A stretch of DNA of 64,000 nucleotides from a bacterium. Its GTDB lineage: Bacteria; JAAXHH01. A program made the position numbers and the translations under genes. The DNA lies in contig OY762445.1 of NCBI GenBank assembly GCA_963665755.1, positions 146,224-210,223 on the forward strand, in the 5' to 3' direction. Below the pieces are notes generated by a model. The model was not told the DNA's origin, made no database searches, and saw only the letters and a program-made list of their open reading frames with translations. The number at the start of each line of letters is the position of its first letter. Position 1 is the stretch's first letter. Positions 9,124 through 53,193 of the stretch are shown here, one piece after another.

Positions 9124-9618
9124 ATGGAAAGAATCTCCTGGGACGAGTATTTCCTTCGCATCGCATATGCCGTTTCGGCGCGTTCGAATTGCATTCGCAG
9201 GCATGTCGGCGCCGTGATCGTGAACGACAAGATCATTACCAGCACGGGCTACAACGGTACCCCCATGGGCATACCCAACTGCTTCGACGGTGGATGCAAA
9301 CGATGCAACTCGGACGGGCCGTCCGGGGCGAACCTCGACGAATGTGTCTGCATGCACGCCGAGGAAAACGCCATCCTTTTCGCCGCGCGCCACGGTTCGT
9401 CCACGAGCGGCGCAACGCTTTACGCCACCAACAAACCCTGCCTGGGCTGTCTTAAAAAGTCCATTCAGGCGGGGATTCGCCGGGTTGTTTATGCGGAGCA
9501 GTACACCTACACGAAATCCATTGAGGAAGTGTATGACTGGCTGGTGGAAGAATCCGGTATCGAGATGGTCGAATTGAAATTGGACGCGAGTCCTGAAGCG
9601 GTCGTGAATACCGCCTGA
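9124..9618 (+). CDS. dCMP deaminase (ComEB-type cytidine/deoxycytidylate deaminase)
   Basis: AAGGAG SD. Zinc motifs HAEENA and PCLGCLK. Confidence 0.8.
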   Translation: MERISWDEYFLRIAYAVSARSNCIRRHVGAVIVNDKIITSTGYNGTPMGIPNCFDGGCKRCNSDGPSGANLDECVCMHAEENAILFAARHGSSTSGATLYATNKPCLGCLKKSIQAGIRRVVYAEQYTYTKSIEEVYDWLVEESGIEMVELKLDASPEAVVNTA

Positions 9619-10550: not shown

Positions 10551-11951
10551 ATGGTGGACAGATCCTACCTGTTCGATGACGACGCCATGCGCGACTTTAT
10601 CGTAAACGGCTACCACGTGATCAACGTGGATCAGCCGGTTGCGCTCCACGACGGGATTTACGAGAAGACGAAGGCGATCATCGACGATGACGGGAATCCG
10701 GGAAACAACCTGTTGCCGCGTGTGCCCGAGATCCAACAGGTCTACGACGATCCTGCCGTTCAAGGCGCACTGACGAGTCTGCTCGGACCGGACTACGTCA
10801 TGCACGCTCACCGCCACCCGCACGTGAACCCGCCGAACAGCCGTGGAGGCAACTGGCACAAGGACAGTTACTGGGGTTACAGCAAGGTGCGGGATCACCA
10901 TCCGCGGTGGATCATGGCCATGTACTACCCCCAGGACACCCCGGTTGAAATCGGACCGACGGGGGTAATACCCGGCAGCCACTACTTCGAGTCCCGCGAA
11001 GAGACCGTCGGAGGGAACGGGTCGGTCCCAGATGGATTCCCCGCGAGCGGCAAGGCGGGAACCATTACCATCATACACTTCGACCTCTGGCACCGGGCGT
11101 TTCCGAACGCAACGGACAAGGTCCGCTATATGATGAAATTCCAGTTTACGAGAATGTCAGAGCCGAACCACCCCTGCTGGAACAATCAACGAGACGAAAT
11201 CGACCTGGGCGACCTGTCGGACGATCCCCGGAGCGCCATGTGGCGGAACATGTGGCACTGGCTTGCCGGAAACGGGTCTGCGGGAACCAGGCGGGAAGGC
11301 GAGGAACACGTCGAAGCGCACGCCCAGGACCTGACGCATGAACTCGAACAGAAGCGTTTGCACGCGGCCTATAGCCTGGCGGAGTGCGGAGAATCCGCGC
11401 TACCGCATCTCCTCGAAGCACTGCAACACGAAAGGGATGAGGTCCGGCGTGAAGCGTGCTACGGACTAAGCGCGCTGGGTACCGCCGCCGTCGAACCGCT
11501 GGTATCCCTGCTCGGACACGAAAACGAACGCGTCAGGGGTTACGCGGTTTACGCCCTTGGAGACATCCGGCACCACAACCCTTCGGTTACGGGGCACCTC
11601 GCGGGTCATACAGACGACCCATCGCCTTTTGTCCGGCAGAACGTGGCCGATGCACTGGGCCAGATCAGGCTGGCTGCGGATTCGTCCGTTCCCGCGCTGA
11701 TCGGTATGATGAAGGACGTGGATGAGCAGGTTCGGTCCAGAACCGCCTACGCGCTGGCCCGATTCGGAGTCGAGGCTCAGACGGCCATTCAAGACCTTGC
11801 GGATGCGTGCTACGATGAAAACCGGTATGTACAGGGGCATGCCGCCGTTGCACTCGAACAAATCGGCACGCCGGAAGCCCTGCGCGCGCTGCTGCACTGG
11901 CTGCAGGCCTCGCGGTGGTGTCCCCTGACGACTGCGAAGAGCACGTTTTAG
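10551..11951 (+). CDS. phytanoyl-CoA dioxygenase (PhyH) family domain fused to C-terminal PBS-lyase-type HEAT repeats
   Basis: AAAGGAGAAG SD. N-terminal about 220 aa with H-x-D (NWHKDSY) and a distal His (FDLWHRAF) in PhyH-like context. C-terminal about 200 aa with at least five repeats of the x-VR-x-x-A-x-x-ALG-x-IG type (EVRREACYGLSALG, ERVRGYAVYALGDI, PFVRQNVADALGQI, EQVRSRTAYALARFG, RYVQGHAAVALEQIG). Confidence 0.75.
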   Translation: MVDRSYLFDDDAMRDFIVNGYHVINVDQPVALHDGIYEKTKAIIDDDGNPGNNLLPRVPEIQQVYDDPAVQGALTSLLGPDYVMHAHRHPHVNPPNSRGGNWHKDSYWGYSKVRDHHPRWIMAMYYPQDTPVEIGPTGVIPGSHYFESREETVGGNGSVPDGFPASGKAGTITIIHFDLWHRAFPNATDKVRYMMKFQFTRMSEPNHPCWNNQRDEIDLGDLSDDPRSAMWRNMWHWLAGNGSAGTRREGEEHVEAHAQDLTHELEQKRLHAAYSLAECGESALPHLLEALQHERDEVRREACYGLSALGTAAVEPLVSLLGHENERVRGYAVYALGDIRHHNPSVTGHLAGHTDDPSPFVRQNVADALGQIRLAADSSVPALIGMMKDVDEQVRSRTAYALARFGVEAQTAIQDLADACYDENRYVQGHAAVALEQIGTPEALRALLHWLQASRWCPLTTAKSTF

Positions 11952-12036
11952 CGGTCGGTAACCCCGATTAAATCCGTGGTCTTGCGCGGTCCATGCGGTC
12001 CATGCGGTCCGCCAGGTACGAGTTCACTCCCGCCTG

Positions 12037-25748: not shown

Positions 25749-25808
25749 AAATACCGTAATGCCAGGTAAAATACCGTAATGCCAAGCAAAATACCGTAAT
25801 GCCAGGCA
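25749..25808. repeat. 3 x 20-bp AT-rich tandem direct repeat (AAATACCGTAATGCCARGYA) in the polA upstream region
   Basis: Three adjacent units read directly: aaataccgtaatgccaggta / aaataccgtaatgccaagca / aaataccgtaatgccaggca. Confidence 0.9.
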
Positions 25809-25893
25809 AACAAGCTATAACAACAACGGCCGTGGATGGTGCGGGTTGCACCCGCCGCGGATCGGTTCCCTCGAAGCCGGAGCTCTAAACCTG

Positions 25894-28656
25894 ATGACCG
25901 AGTCTCAGAAGACCCTCTTTCTCCTGGATGGCATGGCCCTGGCCTACCGCGGTCATTTCGGCTTGATCCGCAACCCGAGGATGACCTCGACGGGCATGAA
26001 CGTTTCCATGGTGTTCGCCATCGCCAATACCATTCTGGGCATTCTGAACAAGAACAGGCCCACCCACATCGCCGCGGTGTTCGACACGCCCGAACCCACC
26101 CACCGGCACAAGCAGTACGCCGAGTACAAGGCGCAGCGGGACGCCATGCCCGAGGACCTGAGTATAGCTCTGCCCTACCTGTTCCGGTTGATCGAAGGTT
26201 TCAACATCCCGGTGATCCGCGTGCCCGGCTGGGAGGCCGACGACGTGATCGGCACCCTCGCGAAACAGGCCGACGAAGCGGGGTATACTACTTTCATGGT
26301 CACGCCGGACAAGGACTACGCGCAACTCGTCTCGGAGCAGTCCTTCATCTGCAAGCCCGGGAACACCGGGGACAACTTCGAAACCATGGGTGTGGATGAC
26401 GTGCTGGAGAAATGGGGGATCGAACGGATCGACCAGGTAATCGACATGCTTGGCCTGATGGGTGACGCCAGCGACAATGTGCCCGGCGTTCCGGGAGTCG
26501 GCGAGAAGACCGCGCAGAAGCTCATCGCACAGTTCGGTTCCGTGGAGAATCTGCTTGAGAACACGGAACAGTTGAAGGGCAAGCAGAAAGAGCGGATCGA
26601 GGAAAGCCGGGATATGGCCCTGTTATCGAAGAGTCTCGTCACCATCGAACGGAACGTCCCGCTCGAGGTCACGCCGGATTCGTTCACCGTGAAAGACAGG
26701 CGCGATGAGGACCTGAAGAAGCTGTTCGTCGAACTGGAGTTCAATACCCTGGGCAAGCGGCTATTCGGCGACGACTTCTCGGCGGCGCCAAGGTTGACCG
26801 TCGCCGGCAGCCAGGAAGACCTGTTCTCCGATGACCAGTTGAAGACGATTGCGGACGTGAAGCACGATTACCGGTGCGTCGATAGCCCCGAATCCCGCGC
26901 CGCGCTCATCGCAGCACTGTCCCGTGCCTCTTCTTTCTGCTTCGACATGGAGACGACCAGCCTTGATCCCAAGACCTGCGAGATCCTCGGTTTTGCCTTC
27001 GCGATCGAATCCCATACCGGATTCTACGTGCCCATGCCTGACGGACGGGAGGATGTACTGCGGGTCGCAGACGAATTCCAATTCCTCTTCGACGATACCG
27101 GCAAGGAACTCATCGGGCACAACATCAAGTTCGATCTGTCCGTGCTCCGGTGGCACGGCATCACGGTGTCCTGCCGCATCTTCGATACGATGCTCGCAGC
27201 CTACGTGACCGTGCCGGACCTGCGGAGGACCATGGACTACCTGTCGCAGGCCCTCCTGGGCTACACGCCGATCTCCATCACCACCCTCATCGGCGAGAAG
27301 GGCGAAGAGCAGGGCACGCTCAAGGATGCACCGCTGGAGAAAGTCGTCGAATACGCGGCGGAAGACGCGGATGTCACGCTGCAGCTCGCGGCATTGCTGC
27401 GGCCCCGGATCGGCGAGATGAACCAGGATACCGTCTTCACCGACATCGAGTGTCCCCTGGTGCCCGCCCTGGTGGAAATGGAACACGAAGGCGTGCGGAT
27501 GGACGTGGGGCAGCTAGAGCACCTGTCCAGCCTGCTGGACGAGGAGATACAGCGGTCCTCGGACCGGATCACCGAACTGGCAGGGGAACCCGTCGATTTC
27601 AATTCGGCAAAACAGCTTGGTCACATCCTCTTCGACAAGTTGCAGATCGATCCAAACGCAAAGCGCACAGCCAAGACCGGGCAGTATTCAACGGCGGAAG
27701 CCGTGCTCCGCAGACTGGCGCCCAAGCACGAAATCGTGGAGCAGATCCTTCATTACCGGATGTGTACCAAGCTCAATTCCGTGTACGTGAGCCAACTGCC
27801 CCATTCCGTATTCCAGCAAACCGGTCGGGTACATACCTCCTATGAACAGGCCGTGATTGCCACCGGCCGAATCCAGTCCCACGGACCCAACCTACAGACC
27901 ATTCCGGTCCGCACGGAGATGGGCCGCCAGATCCGAAAGGCCTTCGTGCCCCGGGACGACGACTTTTTTTTGATGGCTGCGGACTATTCCCAGATCGAAC
28001 TGCGCATCGCGGCCGAACTCAGCCGGGACGAAGGCATGATGGAGACCTTCATTCAGAAAGAGGACATCCACTCCGCTACGGCCATGAAAATCTATGACGT
28101 GGATCATGACAGGGTGACAGACGAGATGCGCAGGCGCGCCAAGACCGTCAATTTCGGCATCATCTACGGCATCTCCGCCTTCGGGCTGGCCGAACGCCTC
28201 AACATCCCGAGGGGACAGGGCCAGGAATTGATCGACCAGTACTTCGCGAAGTATCCCGGCACGCGCAAATACATGGACGAAACGATCAAATTCGCGGAAG
28301 AGAACGGTTTCGTAGAGACCATGACCGGTCGGCGTCGGTACCTGCGTGACATCAATTCGCGGAACAACACGACCAAGCGCGCCGAGGAGCGTGTCGCCAT
28401 CAACTCCCGCATCCAGGGCACGGCGGCCGACCTGATCAAGCTGGCCATGACCCGGATCCACGAAGAACTGAAAAATCGGGAATGCCGGACGCGCATGCTT
28501 TTGCAGGTGCATGATGAGCTCGTATTCGACCTGCATAAATCGGAAGAAGACTCCCTGCCCGGGCTGATCGAGGAGTGCATGCGGGGCGCGCTGCCCATGA
28601 CCGTGCCCATCGAGGTGGAGATCGGCATCGGCGCGAACTGGCTGGAAGCGCACTAG
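25894..28656 (+). CDS. polA: DNA polymerase I
   Basis: 5'-3' exonuclease, 3'-5' exonuclease and polymerase domains. Polymerase motifs RRRAKTVNFGIIYG and LLQVHDELV present. Confidence 0.9.
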   Translation: MTESQKTLFLLDGMALAYRGHFGLIRNPRMTSTGMNVSMVFAIANTILGILNKNRPTHIAAVFDTPEPTHRHKQYAEYKAQRDAMPEDLSIALPYLFRLIEGFNIPVIRVPGWEADDVIGTLAKQADEAGYTTFMVTPDKDYAQLVSEQSFICKPGNTGDNFETMGVDDVLEKWGIERIDQVIDMLGLMGDASDNVPGVPGVGEKTAQKLIAQFGSVENLLENTEQLKGKQKERIEESRDMALLSKSLVTIERNVPLEVTPDSFTVKDRRDEDLKKLFVELEFNTLGKRLFGDDFSAAPRLTVAGSQEDLFSDDQLKTIADVKHDYRCVDSPESRAALIAALSRASSFCFDMETTSLDPKTCEILGFAFAIESHTGFYVPMPDGREDVLRVADEFQFLFDDTGKELIGHNIKFDLSVLRWHGITVSCRIFDTMLAAYVTVPDLRRTMDYLSQALLGYTPISITTLIGEKGEEQGTLKDAPLEKVVEYAAEDADVTLQLAALLRPRIGEMNQDTVFTDIECPLVPALVEMEHEGVRMDVGQLEHLSSLLDEEIQRSSDRITELAGEPVDFNSAKQLGHILFDKLQIDPNAKRTAKTGQYSTAEAVLRRLAPKHEIVEQILHYRMCTKLNSVYVSQLPHSVFQQTGRVHTSYEQAVIATGRIQSHGPNLQTIPVRTEMGRQIRKAFVPRDDDFFLMAADYSQIELRIAAELSRDEGMMETFIQKEDIHSATAMKIYDVDHDRVTDEMRRRAKTVNFGIIYGISAFGLAERLNIPRGQGQELIDQYFAKYPGTRKYMDETIKFAEENGFVETMTGRRRYLRDINSRNNTTKRAEERVAINSRIQGTAADLIKLAMTRIHEELKNRECRTRMLLQVHDELVFDLHKSEEDSLPGLIEECMRGALPMTVPIEVEIGIGANWLEAH

Positions 28657-28669
28657 CAAGCCAGCCGTA

Positions 28670-28741
28670 ACTGGAAGATGGACAGCGTTGGGAAGGTGGA
28701 CAACGACTGGAAGATGGACAGTGATCTGGAGATTCTGATCG
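28670..28741. repeat. about 3.5 x 18-bp tandem direct repeat (ACTGGAAGATGGACAGYG) between polA and the Rieske-fusion operon
   Basis: Units read directly: actggaagatggacagcg / ttgggaaggtggacaacg / actggaagatggacagtg / atctggagattctgatcg. Confidence 0.85.
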
Positions 28742-28796
28742 CAGGCAGCCCGGAAGACATCAGCGAAAATCACACAAACAGAAAGGCAAGGATTCC

Positions 28797-30587
28797 ATGA
28801 GCACAGGAAACGGTTGGATCCGGGTCGGAACTACGACCGACATAGCGCCCGGGGAATCCCGCGCCGTTAGAATCAGCGAGGGCCGCAGCGTTGCCCTCTT
28901 CAACGTCAACGGCCGGATACATGCTACCGACAACCAATGTCCCCACATGGGGTTTCCACTGACCCGCGGCGTGGTGAAGGACGGCATCCTGACGTGCGAC
29001 TGGCATGGCCGCAGTTTCGATCTGGAAGGCGGCGGCTGCTTCAATTACGAATGCGACGACCTGGAGACGTTCCCAGTCGACATTCGTGGAGATGAACTGT
29101 GGGTGCAGGCCGGGGACGCCACCTACAAGCGGCGGGACCAGCACCTGCAACTGCTCTGGGAGGGCCTGCTGAGCGGGGACTCGTGGACGATTTCGAAGGC
29201 CACTGCCCTCCTTCTGTCCGGTGGTGTTTCAGAACACGACATCGTGCAGTTGATCTTGCGCCACCTGGGCCGTCACGTCGCTTCGGAACGGGACGCGGGC
29301 GGCGGCGGCGATGTCGTTTCACTCCTGGTCTCCGGTCTTGAAGTCGGCAAAAGGTTTGACGGAGAAGACAGGCTGATGGCGTTGTCGCTGGCAGGCCGCG
29401 CAGCGTCGGGGAGGGCGTCGGAAAGGCTCGAGGTCATTACGCTGCCCCCGCCGGTCCGCTGGGATCAGATAGACGACTGGGTACGCATGTTCTCCCGAAA
29501 CATGCAGGATTTCCGGATCGAACGGTGTTTGCACACGGCCTGCGAAAACGGCCACCAGGACCATATCTTCAAATTGTTGTTCGAGTGTGCGGTGGCGCCG
29601 TACTTCCTCGGATTTTCCCGTAACGTGGCCAGCCTGGGTGATCTCGCAAGGGTGGTGGATACCTTCGGATGGGGCGAGGCGTCCGAACTGGTCTGCAACC
29701 TCGGCGCAAAGATGACGGGGCGAGGGCGCGACGAGCCGGAGCGGTTCCACCGGGATGCCGTCCGGCTGCTCACCGAACTCGCGCCTGAACTGGAATCACA
29801 TGATTACGACGGGAACACGCGCGCGGAATACGACGAGAACGCCCTCGTAGACGCCCTGTTGAGCGTCGATGTCGAGCGGTCTTTCGAAGCCGTGACACGG
29901 GTCCTGCGGGACGGCGTGGCGCTCGAGCGTCTTATCACGACCTTCGTGCTGCTCGCCGCCGATCGCATGGCGCGTACGCCGGTGAACGTCGACGCGGGGT
30001 GGGGACCGCTGTCCACCGAGTTCAACCTGGCGGCTTCCCTGCGACATGTCCACGCATACGGTGGGCCCGCTGCAGCGGCGAAGGGCCTGTACCATGCGGC
30101 CTGGCAAATTTTCGACAACCGATGGATCAATATCCCCGCACGGTCGCTCGACGAACCCCTTCCCGCCCATCGAACGGACACACCGGACGCGGCAGCCGCT
30201 TCGGATCTCATTGTCCATTCCATCAAGTCGCTGGATATCCACGGGGTGGGCGACCAGGTGGTGGGTTACCTCAACAGCGGATTCGACGGGTCGGACCTGC
30301 TCAAGGAAGTGGGACGGGCGATCCTGTGGGACGATACCAACATGGAGCTCCTTCCCACACTGCGCGTCGCGTTCAACGAATGGGAAGGTTCAGGGGGTGG
30401 CGCAGGCGGCGGAGACGCAAGCGGGGGTGGCGCAGGTGGAAAGGGCCATCCGTCCCGGTATCAGCTCCTGGTGGGACTGGTGCGCTACGCCACGGATGTG
30501 CGATTGAACAAGAACAGCATGGCCTCCATCAACACGGCCATGCGATTTTCTGAAGGCCGGACGACCGTAGAGGTGTTCGACGAATAA
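28797..30587 (+). CDS. Rieske [2Fe-2S] domain fused to an uncharacterized ~480-aa domain (paralog A)
   Basis: Rieske ligands C-P-H-M-G ... C-D-W-H-G within the first 100 aa. Remainder unassignable but shares conserved blocks with paralog B (RHxGRHVAxER, LFECAVAPYFLG, LAADRMARTPVN, GLYHAAWQ, HPSRxQLLVGL). Contains a Gly-rich insert. Confidence 0.8.
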   Translation: MSTGNGWIRVGTTTDIAPGESRAVRISEGRSVALFNVNGRIHATDNQCPHMGFPLTRGVVKDGILTCDWHGRSFDLEGGGCFNYECDDLETFPVDIRGDELWVQAGDATYKRRDQHLQLLWEGLLSGDSWTISKATALLLSGGVSEHDIVQLILRHLGRHVASERDAGGGGDVVSLLVSGLEVGKRFDGEDRLMALSLAGRAASGRASERLEVITLPPPVRWDQIDDWVRMFSRNMQDFRIERCLHTACENGHQDHIFKLLFECAVAPYFLGFSRNVASLGDLARVVDTFGWGEASELVCNLGAKMTGRGRDEPERFHRDAVRLLTELAPELESHDYDGNTRAEYDENALVDALLSVDVERSFEAVTRVLRDGVALERLITTFVLLAADRMARTPVNVDAGWGPLSTEFNLAASLRHVHAYGGPAAAAKGLYHAAWQIFDNRWINIPARSLDEPLPAHRTDTPDAAAASDLIVHSIKSLDIHGVGDQVVGYLNSGFDGSDLLKEVGRAILWDDTNMELLPTLRVAFNEWEGSGGGAGGGDASGGGAGGKGHPSRYQLLVGLVRYATDVRLNKNSMASINTAMRFSEGRTTVEVFDE

Positions 30588-30611
30588 CGAACAACGGAGA
30601 GGTAACGGAAT

Positions 30612-32363
30612 ATGTCAACGGAACAAAACGGATTCGTACGGGTGGCGGCAACGGACGAAGTGGTGGACGGCAAGCCCAAGGCCGTCAAGGTGGAGGGAAG
30701 GAGCATCGCCCTCTTCAAGCATAACGGGTCGGTATTCGCCACGGACAATCAATGTCCGCACATGGGATACCCGCTCACGAGAGGGCGCGTTCGCAACGGC
30801 GTGCTGACTTGTGACTGGCACGGCTGGAGTTACGACCTCGGCGGCGGCGGTTGCTTCACCGGTGGGTGCGATGACCTGGAGACTTTTCCGGTCGAGGTAC
30901 GAAACGGCGACGTGTTCGTGAACGTTAGCGAAGGCGGATCCAAACGGTCGGACGCACACTTCCTGCTCTTGAAGGAAGGACTCTATTCAACGGATCAGTG
31001 GACCATCTCGAAGGCCGTGGCCATCATGCTGGCCCGGGGCGTGTCCGAGACGGACACGTTGAACCTCATCATCCGGCACGGCGGCCGTCACGTCGCGACT
31101 GAACGGGGCGCCAACGATGGTGGTGGAGAGGTCTCCGATTTCATCAATGGGATCAAGGTGGCCCGACAGTACGAGAGCGACGACCGGATCATCCCGCTGA
31201 CCTTTGCCGCCCACGGGCTATCCGGTCGCGCGGGGGACCGGCCGAGCATCCAGCGGTTGCCCGATCCGATCACCTGGGAGAAACTCGAGGGATGGATCCG
31301 GGTGTTCTCCACAGACAAGCAATGGGAAGGCATCGAGAAGTGCCTGATTACCGCCCGCCGGCTGGGCGGACACGATGGCGAGATCCTGCCGCTGCTCTAC
31401 GAATGCGCCGTGGCCCCGCATTTTCTCGGCAATTCGAACAACCTGCTCAACATCGGCTACATCGCGGAAGTGCTCGAGGAATTCGGCTGGGACGAAGCAG
31501 AGGAACTGGTCTGCAACCTCTCGGCCAAGATCCTGGGACAGGAGCGGGGACTGCCCGACGAGATCAGGCAGTCGGCCATCGACCGGTTCATCGCCGACAC
31601 CGAAACGCTGGATTCCATCGGCGACAGACCATCTGACGGTTCCGACGCAGCCTTCGACGAAGACGCCTTCGCGGAGGGTCTGGTAAGCGGCGAAATCGGA
31701 CCGACCTTCGGCGTGGTTACCCAGGCGCTCAAAGACGGCGTTTCTATCGAGCGCATCGTGACGACCATGGTGGTGCTCGCAGCGGACCGCATGGCGCGCA
31801 CGCCGGTTAACATGAACCCGGGATGGGGAGGCCTGGTCCGCGAGATGATGATGGCCAGCGCAATCCGAAAGGCTTTGAGGTACGGTGGGCACCGAGTTGC
31901 CGCCCAGGGTCTGTACCACGTCGCCTGGCAATTCTACGGCGACCGGTGGCTGAATATCACCCATCGTCCGTTGTCCGAGTCGCGTGGAGATCTGCAGCCG
32001 GGAAGCGCGGACGAGGCCGAAGCGATCGAAGGCGTCGTTTCATCCATTGAGCAGATCCAGATCAGGGAAATCGGAAGACAGACCCGGGACTACCTGCGGT
32101 CGGGGTACTCGGGCGACGCGTTGCTCCGGGAACTCGGTCTCGTGATCCTCAAGGACGACAACGGCCGGAACATCCTGTCCACGCTGCGCACGATCTTCGA
32201 CGAATGGACCTGGTGCGAAGATCACCCTTCGCGCAACCAGTTGCTGGTCGGCCTCGCACGCTGGGCCACCGACGTACGCCGCGCCACGGGAAGCCAGTCT
32301 GCCGCCGCTACCGCCCTGCGATTCGCCAAGGGACAGACCGCGGTGGACTTGTACGAGGCGTAA
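30612..32363 (+). CDS. Rieske [2Fe-2S] domain fused to an uncharacterized ~480-aa domain (paralog B)
   Basis: GGAGAGG SD. The same Rieske motifs (CPHMGYPL ... CDWHGWSYD) and the same conserved C-terminal blocks as paralog A. 24-bp gap after paralog A. Confidence 0.8.
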   Translation: MSTEQNGFVRVAATDEVVDGKPKAVKVEGRSIALFKHNGSVFATDNQCPHMGYPLTRGRVRNGVLTCDWHGWSYDLGGGGCFTGGCDDLETFPVEVRNGDVFVNVSEGGSKRSDAHFLLLKEGLYSTDQWTISKAVAIMLARGVSETDTLNLIIRHGGRHVATERGANDGGGEVSDFINGIKVARQYESDDRIIPLTFAAHGLSGRAGDRPSIQRLPDPITWEKLEGWIRVFSTDKQWEGIEKCLITARRLGGHDGEILPLLYECAVAPHFLGNSNNLLNIGYIAEVLEEFGWDEAEELVCNLSAKILGQERGLPDEIRQSAIDRFIADTETLDSIGDRPSDGSDAAFDEDAFAEGLVSGEIGPTFGVVTQALKDGVSIERIVTTMVVLAADRMARTPVNMNPGWGGLVREMMMASAIRKALRYGGHRVAAQGLYHVAWQFYGDRWLNITHRPLSESRGDLQPGSADEAEAIEGVVSSIEQIQIREIGRQTRDYLRSGYSGDALLRELGLVILKDDNGRNILSTLRTIFDEWTWCEDHPSRNQLLVGLARWATDVRRATGSQSAAATALRFAKGQTAVDLYEA

Positions 32364-32389
32364 CATGGGTTGAATCGGTTGCGAGGTGA

Positions 32390-33690
32390 ATGGGCATGGA
32401 CGCCGATCCGTCTGACAAGCGTCTTTACGAACGCTATCATCAAGACCCCGACGAGGCCGACCGGATACTGTTCGGCCGCCGGACTCACCCGGACCGTCGC
32501 GGTTTCCTTAAGAATGCGGGCCTGGCAACCATGGGCGCGTTGGTCGGCGCCGCGATTCCCTTTCATCGCAACGTCCCTGCCCATTTCATTCCGGTCGTGC
32601 TCGCCGCAGAGAACACCATTCAGGGCAAGGACGGCCTGACGGTCCTCAATGATCGCCCCATGTGCGCGGAAACCCCGCCACACCTCCTCGACGACGCCAT
32701 AACGCCCACCGCAAGGCATTTTGTTCGCAACAACGGGTTAGTTCCCGAGGATCTGGACGCCTCGCGCTGGAAGCTTGCGATCGACGGACTGGTCGACAGT
32801 CCGTTGATACTCAACCTCGAGGATCTTGAAGGCCGGTTCGAGGTCGTCACCCGGGCGTTGACCCTGGAATACGCGGGAAACGGCCGGGCATTTTTTAACC
32901 CGAAGACGAAAGGCGAACAGTGGACCTACGGCGCGGTGGCCTGCGCTGAATGGACGGGGGTGCGGCTATCCGACGTACTGACGGCCGCCGGAATGAAGCG
33001 CGAAGCAGTCTACACCGCGCACTACGGCGCAGATACCCACCTTTCCGGTGTGGAGGGCCGGACTTCCCATCTCCCGCGGCGTACCGATCGAAAAGGCCAT
33101 GGATGGACACAGCCTCATCGCCTTCGCCCAGAACAGCCGACCGATACACCCGATGAACGGCGGCCCGTTGCGCCTGATCATACCGGGATGGCTCGGGTCA
33201 TGTTCCCATAAATGGCTGAACCGCATAGAGATACGGGACCAGGTGCACGACGGGCCCAAGATGACAGGCACCTCGTATCGATTGCCGCGACGGGGCATCG
33301 AACCCGGCGAGATCGTGGACGAGAAAGACTTCCAAATCATAGAAAGCATGCCGGTGAAGTCGCTCATCACGCACCCGGCGACGGGGCACAGATCGAATGA
33401 CAGTTCAGTGGAAATAAGGGGCCATGCGGACAGGTAAGGGGCGCGTCTCCGCGGTTGATCTTTCGGTCGACTTCGGGGCGACCTGGAAGCGAGCGACGCT
33501 GGAGGAACCGGTCAACGCCTTCGCCTGGCAGAACTGGCGCGCTTCGTTTTCGTTGCCGCAGGATGGGTATTACGAGGTTTGGGCGAGGGCCACCGACTCT
33601 CTGGGCGTCAGCCAGCCCCACGCCATCGCGTGGAATCCGGGTGGCTACCTAAACAACGCCATGCACCGCGTCGCGGTGTACGTGGGGTAA
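32390..33690 (+). pseudogene. sulfite-oxidase-family molybdopterin oxidoreductase (Tat-exported), disrupted by two +1 frameshifts
   Basis: Twin-arginine motif RRGFLKNAGLATMGALVG. The Oxidored_molyb region reads in frame 1 to about 33050 (..HYGADTHLSG), continues in frame 2 (LPISRGVPIEKAMDGHSLIAFAQN..GGPLRLIIPGW) to about 33425, then frame 3 carries the Mo-co dimerisation domain (GKGRVSAVDLSVDFGATWKRA..WNPGGY). Confidence 0.6.
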
Positions 33691-33828: not shown

Positions 33829-33930
33829 ATGTTGCGTGTTGTTTTCTACAAGACTGAAACTGGACGCGAGCCAGTGCGTGACAGGACCTACAGCCTGCAA
33901 TTTCGCGATCGGCAAAGCTGGGAGAAGCGA
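33829..33930 (+). pseudogene. N-terminal remnant of a Gp49-like/HigB-type toxin
   Basis: MLRVVFYKTETGREPVRD matches the conserved N-terminus of the phage Gp49-like RelE/ParE toxin family from memory. The rest of the about 110-aa toxin is missing and the frame runs into the antitoxin gene. Confidence 0.35.
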
Positions 33931-33934
33931 ATAG

Positions 33935-34222
33935 ATGACTATAGATACCCAACATGTTGGTGGCAACTTCGATGGATATTTGAAAGAAGAAGGTCTAATT
34001 GAGGAAGTAGAACAAGTAGCAGCAAAGCGTGCAGTTGCGTTACAAGTAAACCAATTCATGTCGAATCAGGGACTGAGCAAGACCGAAATGGCCCGACGTA
34101 TGCACACGAGTCGTGCCTCACTGGATCGCCTGCTGGATCCGGAGAATGGATCTGTCACACTGCAAACCCTGGAACGGGCGGCCGATGCACTGGGACGGCG
34201 CTTGCATATCTCGCTGGTTTGA
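33935..34222 (+). CDS. XRE-family HTH antitoxin (HigA-like)
   Basis: 95-aa protein with an HTH core (LSKTEMARRMHTSRASLDRLL), the typical partner of Gp49-like toxins. Low-GC context. Confidence 0.6.
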   Translation: MTIDTQHVGGNFDGYLKEEGLIEEVEQVAAKRAVALQVNQFMSNQGLSKTEMARRMHTSRASLDRLLDPENGSVTLQTLERAADALGRRLHISLV

Positions 34223-35223: not shown

Positions 35224-36204
35224 TCAGCCGTCGTTATTCGTCTTCAGAAATACGTTCTCGGATTCCCTTTCCCAGGTTTCGTTGTAGACCAGTGGCCTCG
35301 GCCTGCGTGGCGGGTAATCCGGCGGGGGATTATCCGGTTCGTTCAGTTCCAGGCGGTCGCGTCCCCGGGGCGCTTCGTACCAGTGCTTCTCCCGTTCGGC
35401 CGCTTCGATCTCCCTGCGGAGGATGAACTCCGCGTGATCGAATCCGGAGATCGCCGCGTCCGCCAGAAACACGCGATGCACCTCGCGGCCGTCCCAGGTT
35501 GCCAGATCCGGCAGGACCACGGGGCCCGTGCAGACCTGAAACTCGGCGTCTTCCTCGTTAATATTGATCAGATCCACGGGAAATTCAAGGGTAACCCGCA
35601 TGTTCCGGTCCGCCTGGCCTGCTTGGTCCGTTTGGTCCGCCTGGCCTGCTTGGTCCGTTGGGTCCGTTTGGTCCGCCTGGTCTGCTTGGCCCGTTTGGCC
35701 CGCCTGGTCTGCTTGACCCGGCTGGTCCGGATCATGGCAGTCGGTCCAGGCGATCCTGCCATTCATGAGATCCCGGTTGATCGTCGCGTCCACTACGGCC
35801 CGCGCGTCAGTCAGGGTTTCCTCGGAATCATACTGCCTGATATCGATTTCGTGGGCCTGGAACTGTTTTTCAAGCGGAGTACCCCTGTATTCGGCGGCCT
35901 CGTTACTCGGTCTTCGCGATATAGGGATGCTCTGACTTCGGCTAAACGCCATGCGCCATTCGTCGCTGGGAATCTGAAAGAGGTTTCGGCGGGCAATCGT
36001 GTATTCCGAGCGACACGGAGCGCCCAGGTATATTTTGGTACGGTGTCCCGAGTCGTCCTCCACGGTACAGGCCGCCTCGAGGTGGAACCGCACCTGGTAG
36101 GCCTGTCCCGGCACCCCGACAAAACCGCCCGTATACTTGAAAACCGGATCGGGTTTCCACGGCCAGGATTTCCAGTGGAAAGAAGAGCGATGGAATGCGA
36201 TCAT
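35224..36204 (-). CDS. hypothetical protein with internal (DQAGQAD)n low-complexity linker
   Basis: 326-aa ORF of balanced composition. The antisense 475-aa ORF is Arg/Val/Leu junk. 40-bp gap to the downstream PhyH gene on the same strand. Confidence 0.5.
35606..35730. repeat. about 4.7 x 27-bp tandem repeat (GGTCCGCCTGGCCTGCTTGGTCCGTTT) inside the CDS 35224-36204
   Basis: Read directly. On the coding (minus) strand it encodes (QTDQAGQAD)-type nonapeptide repeats. Confidence 0.85.
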
Positions 36205-39182: not shown

Positions 39183-39239
39183 CCGGCGTAACGCGTAACT
39201 CCGCGTAACGCGTACTCCGCGTCCGCTGTTCGGTCGTGA

Positions 39240-42687: not shown

Positions 42688-42824
42688 TATGCCTGCCGCC
42701 AGGCAGGATGGCCCTGCCCTGTCGCCCTGTCATGAGCGGTACGAGTGGTACCGTCCCTGGATCAGTGCGCCTCTGGCGGCTCGCAGCCTCAGGCGGCTCG
42801 CATGCCTCAGGCAGCTCGCAGGCG

Positions 42825-51480: not shown

Positions 51481-52140
51481 ATGCTGCTATCTCGTTTTTT
51501 CAAGAAAAAAGGACGGGGTGCGGGCCCTGTTTCCCCCCAGGATCGGATGATCGAGGAGCAGATCGTCGGGCGCGGCATCGACGAACCCCGGCTGATCGAG
51601 GCCATGCGCGCCGTGCCGCGGCATCGGTTCATTCCCGAGGCGTTCAGGTCTCACGCCTACGAAGACTGTGCCGTGTCTCTCGACCTGGGACAGACCGTGT
51701 CCCAACCCTATATCGTGGGGCTGATGACCAGGCTGCTCGATGCGAATGAATCGGACCGGATCCTGGAGATCGGCACGGGATCGGGCTATCAGACGGCGAT
51801 CCTGGCCCGGCTCGCCCGATCCGTATACACGGTGGAACGGCTGGGTGTCCTGGGCCGGCGAGCGCGGGAGACGCTGGAATCCCTTGGGTACGACAACATC
51901 CATTACCGGATCGGAGACGGCCACGGGGGTTGGCCCGCGGAAGCGCCTTTCGACGGCATCATGGTGACGGCGGCGCCTAGGGTCCTGCCAAATATCCTAT
52001 TCGGCCAGCTGAAGAACAGAGGGAAAATGGTCGTCCCCATCGGGGAGGAACTGTACACCGTAACGCGGTCGGGGGACGAAGCGGTCAAGGTTCACCACGG
52101 CGGCGTGCGGTTCGTGCCCATGGTGGAGGATGGGGCTTAG
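51481..52140 (+). CDS. pcm: protein-L-isoaspartate O-methyltransferase
   Basis: SAM motif LEIGTGSGYQTAILA and Pcm-like termini. The true start may be at 51547. Confidence 0.85.
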   Translation: MLLSRFFKKKGRGAGPVSPQDRMIEEQIVGRGIDEPRLIEAMRAVPRHRFIPEAFRSHAYEDCAVSLDLGQTVSQPYIVGLMTRLLDANESDRILEIGTGSGYQTAILARLARSVYTVERLGVLGRRARETLESLGYDNIHYRIGDGHGGWPAEAPFDGIMVTAAPRVLPNILFGQLKNRGKMVVPIGEELYTVTRSGDEAVKVHHGGVRFVPMVEDGA

Positions 52141-52185
52141 CGGTTTACTACTCCGATCAGGCGGCGCCCTGGTTTACTAATATGG

Positions 52186-53193
52186 TCAGGCGGCGCCCAG
52201 CACTTCCCGTGCGGCCTGCGTGGTCTCACGGACCTGGTCCAGGGTCCCCATCCCGAACATGGAGGCCGAAACGCCGATCTCATCGAATACGTACTCGAAG
52301 GCCTTGTGTCCCAGGTAGCGGCCGCCGGCCATCGGCTTGATGGCGATGACGGGCTTACTGGCCTGCCTGATGGCGTCGATGGCCACGTCACGGGTGGGAA
52401 ACATGAAGGTGCCGGGGGCATTTACGGTAGTCAGGTAGCCGTCGACGGGGATGTTCTCGGCCTCGAGCAGCGGCAGGGTGACCCCGGCGTGGTGGACGCT
52501 CGTGATCACGGTGTCGAACCTTTCCCTCAGAAAGTCGAGGTACTCCCGGATCAGATCGAAGCGCCCGGTCATCGCGAGCAGGTCGATCTCGGCGCCCGGG
52601 TCGGCTACGAGGATATCGCACCCGGCGAAGAAACCCAGGTACTGCTCCAGGATACCGTAATCGATCTCGAAACGGGCGGCGTCCGCTTCCGTGTACGGCG
52701 GTACGGTCTCCGGCGTGACGATGCCTTCAAAGGTGTCCCCCAGGTTATAGCGGATGATGTCGTCGCGGCTGAAGTGGTCACGGAAGGCCTGGCCGGCGAG
52801 GGCTTCGTTGCGGCCGTAGAAGGTCGAATGGGCACGATCCGAATAGGAGACGATTTCGCCGTCCAGCGTGACCGGGATCAGGATGTATGCCACGATGCCC
52901 AGTTGCGTGGCGGTCTGCTGCTCGGTTTCCCAGATGGCCTGCAGATGCAGCCGGTCGAGTTTGGGCAGCATGTGATCTACTTGGATGGCCGTGATGCCGC
53001 CTTCCTCGACGGCGTATCTAAGCACGGCGGCCACCGATTGTACGCGGCTGAAGGAGCGTAAATTCGCCGCATCCCGCGCCTTGTCCTGGTAGGAACAGCC
53101 ATCGTAGGGATGGATGCCCATGATCAGGCGGGGGACCTCGGCCTGGCCGATTTGTGTCGTGGGTACGCCGCAGCCTTCCAGATATGTCTTCAT
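52186..53193 (-). CDS. hypothetical protein
   Basis: 335-aa ORF with good codon bias; no motif recognised. Confidence 0.45.
   Translation of the reverse strand: MKTYLEGCGVPTTQIGQAEVPRLIMGIHPYDGCSYQDKARDAANLRSFSRVQSVAAVLRYAVEEGGITAIQVDHMLPKLDRLHLQAIWETEQQTATQLGIVAYILIPVTLDGEIVSYSDRAHSTFYGRNEALAGQAFRDHFSRDDIIRYNLGDTFEGIVTPETVPPYTEADAARFEIDYGILEQYLGFFAGCDILVADPGAEIDLLAMTGRFDLIREYLDFLRERFDTVITSVHHAGVTLPLLEAENIPVDGYLTTVNAPGTFMFPTRDVAIDAIRQASKPVIAIKPMAGGRYLGHKAFEYVFDEIGVSASMFGMGTLDQVRETTQAAREVLGAA

Follow-up and report, generated by a model that had tools for sequence, protein, structure and literature searches.

An 18-nt tandem repeat array in the spacer between polA and two Rieske-fusion genes: anatomy, distribution and probable origin

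The spacer between polA and the first of two genes for Rieske-fusion proteins (Rieske1 and Rieske2) carries a short direct repeat, which raises the question of whether the repeat serves as a regulatory input of the downstream operon or is a by-product of local duplication. An earlier note on this DNA had described about 3.5 near-identical, helically phased 18-bp repeats filling most of the gap, and had read them either as iteron-like regulatory sites or as a hypervariable minisatellite. In the following, the window denotes the whole 64 kb stretch of DNA that was analysed, and all coordinates refer to it unless a related locus is named.

Anatomy and alleles of the array

The location of the array, its unit, the flanking genes and the gap of 140 nt between polA and Rieske1 were described correctly in the earlier note, and an 18-nt array consisting of three units and a degenerate fourth was confirmed inside the gap. 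The three units span 28670-28723 and the fourth 28724-28741, so that the array takes up 72 of the 140 nt, roughly one half, where the earlier note had spoken of most of the gap. The region is composed of the following features:

28654-28656, + strand: stop codon TAG of polA (936 aa; Pfam DNA_pol_A match up to residue 934 of 936, both exonuclease domains present)
28636..28656, + strand: last seven codon positions of polA, AAC TGG CTG GAA GCG CAC TAG (N W L E A H stop)
28657..28669, + strand: proximal spacer, unrepeated, CAAGCCAGCCGTA, with a single A/G difference among alleles
28670..28687, + strand: unit 1, A-type, ACTGGAAGATGGACAGCG, first 14 nt invariant across all alleles
28688..28705, + strand: unit 2, TTGGGAAGGTGGACAACG, 13/18 matches to unit 1
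28706..28723, + strand: unit 3, A-type, ACTGGAAGATGGACAGTG, 16 nt invariant across all alleles
28724..28741, + strand: unit 4, degenerate, ATCTGGAGATTCTGATCG, about 9/18 ungapped matches, resembling the B-type unit of the sister allele
28742..28779, + strand: older distal spacer, containing CCGGAAGACATCAGCG (28750-28765) and CACAC, common to more distant relatives
28780..28792, + strand: Shine-Dalgarno (SD) region, AGAAAGGCAAGGA, 4-10 nt before the Rieske1 ATG
28797..30587, + strand: first Rieske-fusion gene, Rieske1 (596 aa; Pfam Rieske E = 1.5e-16, residues 7-92)
30612..32363: second Rieske-fusion gene, Rieske2, followed by a molybdopterin-oxidoreductase ORF

Tandem Repeats Finder (TRF) reported the array at 28673-28721 with a period of 18, 2.7 copies, 77% matches and a score of 63, and the repeat search found three in-register copies together with an exact 16-nt pair (28670-28685 and 28706-28721) lying 36 nt apart. 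The description as near-identical holds for units 1 and 3, which match at 17/18 positions, but neither for unit 2 nor for the supposed half unit, which is the degenerate fourth. When up to three mismatches were allowed, the 18-mer had two sites in the 64 kb window, both of them in the array, against 0.13 expected, and the repeat therefore exceeds chance. Helical phasing was contradicted by the geometry: 18 bp correspond to 1.71 helical turns, so that the units are not phased, and between the identical units, at a distance of 36 bp, the phase is off by about 154 degrees.

The distribution of the array was determined from a one-genome-per-species scan with the Rieske1 protein, which resulted in 34 loci, 21 of them with polA directly upstream of Rieske1. 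The MAGs among these relatives are labelled Gemmatimonadota, Latescibacterota or "bacterium", and several of them, as we read their isolate names, come from sponge or coral holobiont projects. Two further assemblies (L105 and L106) were found by exact-protein look-up with Rieske1 and are essentially the same strain as the window, L105 being identical at all 2,891 compared positions and L106 differing at 3. The same look-up with Rieske2 returned solely contigs beginning inside Rieske1, and with the Mo-domain protein no record.

The array is restricted to the species-level group of the window, which comprises six assemblies with two alleles. The window, L105 and L106 share the window allele with an identical array, and L001, L002 and L042 carry the sister allele; the Rieske1 proteins of L001 and the window are 99% identical. 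The array is absent from 17 other genomes with the order polA-Rieske1-Rieske2, the spacers of which measure 19-118 nt. Furthermore, the search for other copies of the 18-mer that the earlier note had proposed was carried out in the window, the related loci, metagenomes and viral contigs, and the 18-mer is not dispersed in any of them. The metagenome scan gave 70 matches, with L042 as the sole orthologous locus and 69 single chance matches in unrelated DNA, which is about the number expected for 17.5 specified bases; no match was found in viral contigs.

The sister allele has the layout ABAB with a period of about 18.5, where A is ACTGGAAGATGGACA and B is TCTGGA(A)GATT(CT)GAT, and TRF reported a period of 19 and 2.9-3.3 copies for L001. 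At the position of unit 2, the sister alleles contain a B-type unit of 19 nt, TCTGGAAGATTGATAG(Y)TA. In the window, this first B unit of the layout is replaced by an A-like unit, a replacement that amounts to about 10 differences within 23 nt, while 4-fold sites differ by 4-9% between the alleles. The number of units was 3+1 in 6/6 assemblies, a small sample in which copy-number hypervariability was not observed. The reading as a hypervariable minisatellite is hence closer to the evidence in one part, the lineage-restricted tandem duplication in a variable spacer, but not in the other, as the copy number was constant among the strains compared.

Duplications at the polA-Rieske1 junction

The terminus of polA is kept in 20/20 genomes of the clade, and in related genomes it has repeatedly been copied into the spacer. 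The sole block conserved across all clade spacers is AGAAAGG, the Shine-Dalgarno tract, and in the minimal spacer, that of L003, the polA stop abuts this tract (AGAAGAAAGGAAAGG). Eight genomes lack any spacer expansion (19-46 nt). The spacers of L007, L012, L017 and L033 share homology with the distal spacer of the window (28742-28796; local alignment p ~0.002), whereas no match to the array part was found among the spacers of other species (best p 0.08-0.10), which identifies the array as a young insertion beside an older spacer.

The own polA terminus is resembled by 7/19 spacers at p <= 0.01, compared to 0/19 for a cross-control terminus. The copies in the relatives take in the final 13-26 nt of polA with its stop codon and are perfect or near-perfect:

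L030: 21 nt x2, perfect
L010: 26 nt x2.8, plus 11 nt x2
L005: 18 nt, missing from the 4%-diverged sister L009
L028: 16 nt x2, perfect
L014: 16 nt
L006 and L008: about 13 nt each
L011: relic copy of the polA end
L004: 13 nt x2.7, seen by eye and by TRF, not significant in the terminus test (p 0.11)

These duplications differ in unit and boundary and are located on separate terminal branches of a neighbour-joining tree; stop-spanning duplication has arisen many times independently at one gene junction. The signal was found at 7/19 polA-Rieske1 junctions versus 4/119 other gene ends in the same loci, the latter predicted with a codon-usage model for which six Pfam-supported genes had served as training set. 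This makes the polA-Rieske1 junction a genuine duplication hotspot, which a purely neutral, genome-wide mutation model fails to explain. The next junction is also affected: the Rieske1-Rieske2 spacer measures 23-129 nt in relatives and contains a 29-nt duplication in L007 and GACGAATAG x3 in L015.

Further downstream, the spacer between Rieske2 and the next gene ranges from 6 to 196 nt in relatives, with a copy of the Rieske2 end in L004 that was recognised by eye, and several of the relatives' downstream intercistronic spacers hold relics of the upstream gene's last codons and stop. The corresponding spacers of the window are minimal, with 24 nt between Rieske1 and Rieske2 (30588-30611) and 26 nt between Rieske2 and the next gene (32364-32389).

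For the 18-nt unit of the window itself, neither the comparison with its own polA end (p = 0.22) nor that with the older distal element (p = 0.24) was significant. Unit and polA end share AACTGG / CTGGAAG, an intermediate is present in L011 (AACTGGAAGCACAC), and L007 has TTGGAAGCATGACAGCAC. These similarities are suggestive and make a descent of the unit from the polA end plausible.

By a hand count on the alignment of the window, L001 and L042, about 23 of 141 spacer columns vary, where 18.8 would be expected from 4-fold sites. Taken as a whole, the spacer thus evolves roughly neutrally, and one replacement stands out as a cluster. No allele differs in the cores of the A units (14 + 16 nt, from units 1 and 3); given 13.4% variable 4-fold sites in the three-genome comparison, 30 nt would all stay unchanged with p 0.014, a value calculated post hoc. 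This hints that the A units are either constrained or homogenised with each other.

It is rather likely that the array is a young, lineage-specific and near-neutral tandem-duplication array in an intercistronic spacer, without a sequence-specific function of its own. It would have originated by serial short tandem duplication, through replication slippage or template switching, in a fast-changing, purine-rich and unstructured spacer. The ancestral spacer was probably about 20 nt long, with the polA stop followed directly by the Shine-Dalgarno tract as in L003, and across the clade it has grown repeatedly by tandem duplications that spanned the polA stop or copied its earlier relics. As such duplications leave the polA protein and the ribosome-binding site of Rieske1 intact, they would be tolerated and decay later. 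In the lineage of the window, a GGAAG-containing 18-nt unit would have been amplified to four copies, one of which was presumably replaced or converted later. A longer spacer or GGAAG motifs might also have been selected for. An att-like integration-site duplication of the polA end was weighed and dismissed: the copies follow one another strictly in tandem without intervening sequence, and the whole clade keeps the gene order.

Such an origin means that intergenic DNA can come from coding termini via stop-spanning tandem duplication and subsequent decay. The process is not confined to the clade, as two unrelated contigs with stop-spanning repeats indicate: L022 at about 10695-10963 (Poribacteria MAG, 69 nt x4) and L074 at 9157-9193 (metagenome contig, 14 nt x2.6), where the first unit holds the last codons and the stop of the gene. 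A literature search on stop-spanning short tandem duplications yielded no directly relevant paper and no named phenomenon.

Transcription, RNA and coding signals

A scan of 28000-29400 for sigma-70 promoters and intrinsic terminators detected nothing. Within the 300 nt upstream of Rieske1, a sigma-70-like promoter was absent in 19/20 genomes (present in 1/20). Upstream of polA, a promoter-like site was found in 11/20 genomes, and an extended -10 element (TGGTAAAAT) just past the stop of the upstream amidohydrolase gene is conserved in 9/20. Rieske operons of the outgroup that are not preceded by polA (L022 and L025) show TTGACA-17-TATAAT promoters by eye. Spacers down to 19 nt, together with the missing promoter signal of Rieske1, point to read-through from polA or to a promoter inside polA. 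Clade-wide, the Rieske-fusion genes downstream of polA appear to lack a recognisable promoter of their own, which suggests that they are transcribed in one of these two ways. The array, too, would most likely be transcribed along with them, either by read-through from polA or from an internal polA promoter; its sole effect would then be to widen the gap between the two cistrons from about 20 to 140 nt. The repeat should not be counted as a regulatory input of the Rieske-fusion genes, a mostly negative result for the operon.

No regulator gene was found beside the cluster, the single candidate being a degraded HigBA-like pair. At 33829-34222, a truncated Gp49/HigB-like ORF (57 aa, start MLRVVFYKTETGREP), a putative HigB by its motif, overlaps an ORF of 95 aa for an XRE-type HTH protein. 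The pair looks like a decayed HigBA-type toxin-antitoxin module at the end of the Rieske cluster.

At the RNA level, an Rfam search of the whole window at the gathering threshold and of 28550-28900 at E <= 1 revealed no match. The spacer RNA is less stable than dinucleotide shuffles on both strands (z = +1.3 and +1.5), its sense strand is 59-69% purine, and the 118 nt that precede the SD region hold eight GGA motifs, while the SD region itself contains AAGGA. GGAAG was observed 20 times in the clade spacers versus 2.7 expected, an enrichment of about 7-fold. With these properties, the GGA-rich, unstructured tract in the Rieske1 leader could act as a ribosome standby site or translation enhancer, or as a CsrA/Rsm-type platform, and its expansion could have been selected to uncouple the initiation of Rieske1 from ribosomes terminating on polA. 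The recurrent independent expansions at one junction fit selection for a longer leader, and so does the polA stop that abuts the SD tract in the minimal spacer. RNAs of the CsrA/Rsm type carry several GGA motifs, typically in hairpin loops, one of them overlapping the SD sequence. The GGA motifs of the spacer do not lie in hairpin loops, and no CsrB/Rsm-like Rfam match was obtained. Moreover, descent of the units from the polA end (CTGGAAGC) would by itself produce a GGAAG enrichment, the eight unexpanded spacers of 19-46 nt belong to the same clade, and GGAAG abuts an ATG without spacing, so that the units are not productive start sites. An RNA-level role of this kind, or selection for a longer spacer, is considered rather unlikely; it is given some weight because duplications concentrate at this junction, GGAAG is enriched and the A cores do not vary.

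A broader reading, which we hold to be unlikely, concerns the entire marine-invertebrate-associated clade. According to it, stop-spanning duplications repeatedly rebuild the polA-Rieske1-Rieske2 spacers with polA-Rieske1 as a true hotspot, and the GGAAG-rich arrays, among them the 18-nt array of the window with its invariant A cores, may either be selected, as a means at the RNA level of uncoupling Rieske-fusion translation from polA or of tuning it, or mark sequence-directed duplication at all-purine Shine-Dalgarno tracts. Should selection or a sequence-directed mechanism lie behind the hotspot, the finding would be relevant to the study of operon architecture and translational coupling.

The iteron-like regulatory input proposed in the earlier note, i.e., iteron-like or response-regulator-type sites for a transcription factor controlling the Rieske operon, is quite improbable. 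Iterons and direct-repeat operators, such as those of plasmid Rep proteins and OmpR/PhoB-type boxes, are direct repeats of about 17-22 bp spaced at integral helical turns. The array resembles them in unit length, direct orientation and the presence of three to four head-to-tail copies, with a TGGA half-site at 7/11-nt spacing; it lies upstream of the first gene of the operon, and the cores of both A units are invariant among the alleles. Measured by the similarity of the units, only two agree at 17/18 positions, followed by 13/18 and about 9/18. Unlike iterons, the units are off integral-turn spacing, and neither a cognate binding-protein gene nor an origin or promoter context is found among the neighbouring genes. 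The array is not conserved with the operon that it would regulate, being missing in the 17 genomes with the same operon, and some of the spacers (19-34 nt) are too short for an operator plus promoter. In addition, the 64 kb window has no further site at three mismatches, no promoter-like site accompanies the array, and unit 2 is swapped between close alleles.

A translated small ORF across the repeats, serving as a coupling or leader peptide, is very improbable. An ORF of 40 codons (28678..28800, 40 aa) runs through the repeats in the polA frame, its TGA overlaps the Rieske1 ATG (ATGA), and its codon log-odds are positive (0.28 per codon); a shorter ORF starts at the ATG of unit 3, and the peptide MDSDLEILIAG can be read in 4/4 alleles. 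The 40-codon frame is shifted or stopped in L001, L002 and L042 (in L001 by a +1 indel and a TAA), and the shorter ORF ends after 11-13 codons in L002 and L042, short of the Rieske1 start. With GGAAG immediately adjacent to the ATG, no SD sits at a usable distance. The ATGA overlap follows from the conserved Met-Ser at the start of Rieske1, and DNA derived from an in-frame coding terminus would be expected to score positively for codon usage. As its frames are broken in the sister alleles, the 40-codon ORF was not considered coding and the leader-peptide reading was rejected.

Finally, a non-sigma-70 promoter in the repeats that drives the operon, e.g., of the sigma-54 type, is hardly credible and was rejected for its poor consensus match: the A units read TGGAAGATGGACAGC with a GG-N10-GC spacing by eye, but match only 6/11 consensus positions of TGGCAC-N5-TTGCW and lack the TTGC element, no enhancer-binding-protein gene is located nearby, and the element is not conserved in relatives.

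Known repeat systems and other repeats of the window

The array is another case of an already known kind, the bacterial intergenic VNTR-like repeat. In common with VNTRs and minisatellites, it consists of head-to-tail copies of a unit of the 10-100 nt class in non-coding DNA, above chance and without secondary structure, it is restricted to one lineage, and it shows turnover of units between close relatives at an orthologous site that is variable. Unlike them, its copy number is constant in the six assemblies and its copies are already degenerate (77% matches).

A second comparison is offered by the mycobacterial-type element MIRU. In the summary of Supply et al. (1997) given in PMC5056196, MIRUs are described as direct tandem repeats in the spacers of co-directional genes, oriented with transcription. 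The same summary counts them as a dispersed family with 41 loci in H37Rv and units of 40-100 bp. A small translated coupling or leader ORF through the repeats, overlapping the flanking stop and start codons, has been proposed for MIRUs. The array is likewise intercistronic between co-directional genes, and in the window an ORF through the repeats abuts the downstream start codon. It differs in that its 18-nt unit is unique to one locus in the window and the metagenomes searched, and in that its small ORF is not conserved in L001, L002 and L042.

In a comparison with CsrA/Rsm leaders, the spacer shows the eight GGA motifs in 118 nt and the AAGGA at the SD, in a tract that is unstructured (z = +1.3) and has no Rfam match. 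The spacer differs from structured cis-regulatory RNAs by the missing Rfam match, stable fold and terminator-like site. Duplications of gene 3' ends that span the stop, by comparison, were seen in the polA ends of the relatives, in L074 and L022, and in the window at 52142-52198; for the window's own 18-nt unit, such an origin is suggestive.

The latter site carries a 29-nt tandem duplication (GGGCGCCGCCTGA x2) that spans the stop of the minus-strand gene 52186..53193 and lies between this gene and the convergent PCMT gene 51481..52140. It is an event of the same kind as the polA-end duplications and one of the 4/119 other gene ends mentioned above.

Intergenic tandem repeats with a period >= 9 and a score >= 50 were counted using rough gene calls and amounted to 0.84 per kb of intergenic DNA in the window, 0.50 in the clade loci and 0.13 in 69 unrelated metagenome contigs, which the window exceeds about sixfold. 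The genic tandem-repeat density was equal across the sets with 5-7 per 100 kb. Further intergenic repeats of the window are located just past gene ends at 11986-12010 (9 nt x2.8), 39186-39222 (17 nt x2.2) and 42769-42821 (17 nt x3.1).

In the spacer between the amidohydrolase gene and polA, a 20-nt repeat (AAATACCGTAATGCCAGGCA x3) was found at 25749-25810, downstream of the extended -10 element, which reads GGGTAAGAT in the window and TGGTAAAAT in relatives. This repeat is probably part of the 5' leader of polA. It is present in three copies in the window, in three diverged copies in L001, in two copies in L042 and in a single copy in more distant relatives, and these differences in copy number indicate that short tandem arrays in this genome are dynamic.

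Coding repeats were observed as well. Near its C-terminus, Rieske1, which varies between 582 and 603 aa among relatives, contains a Gly-rich 15-nt coding repeat (GGGAGGGDASGGGAGG, 30393-30434). A 9-nt coding repeat with about 12 copies at 35607-35729 encodes a (D/G)Q(A/T) linker in the minus-strand ORF 35224..36204, the product of which has 326 aa and no Pfam match.

Downstream of Rieske2, a sulfite-oxidase-like molybdoenzyme (32390-33690) is distributed over three frames: 32390..33211 (Oxidored_molyb), 33048..33437 and 33424..33690 (Mo-co_dimer). It is either a frameshifted pseudogene or requires recoding. The molybdoenzyme is likewise split, into 271 + 88 aa, in the independent assemblies L107, L108 and L110.
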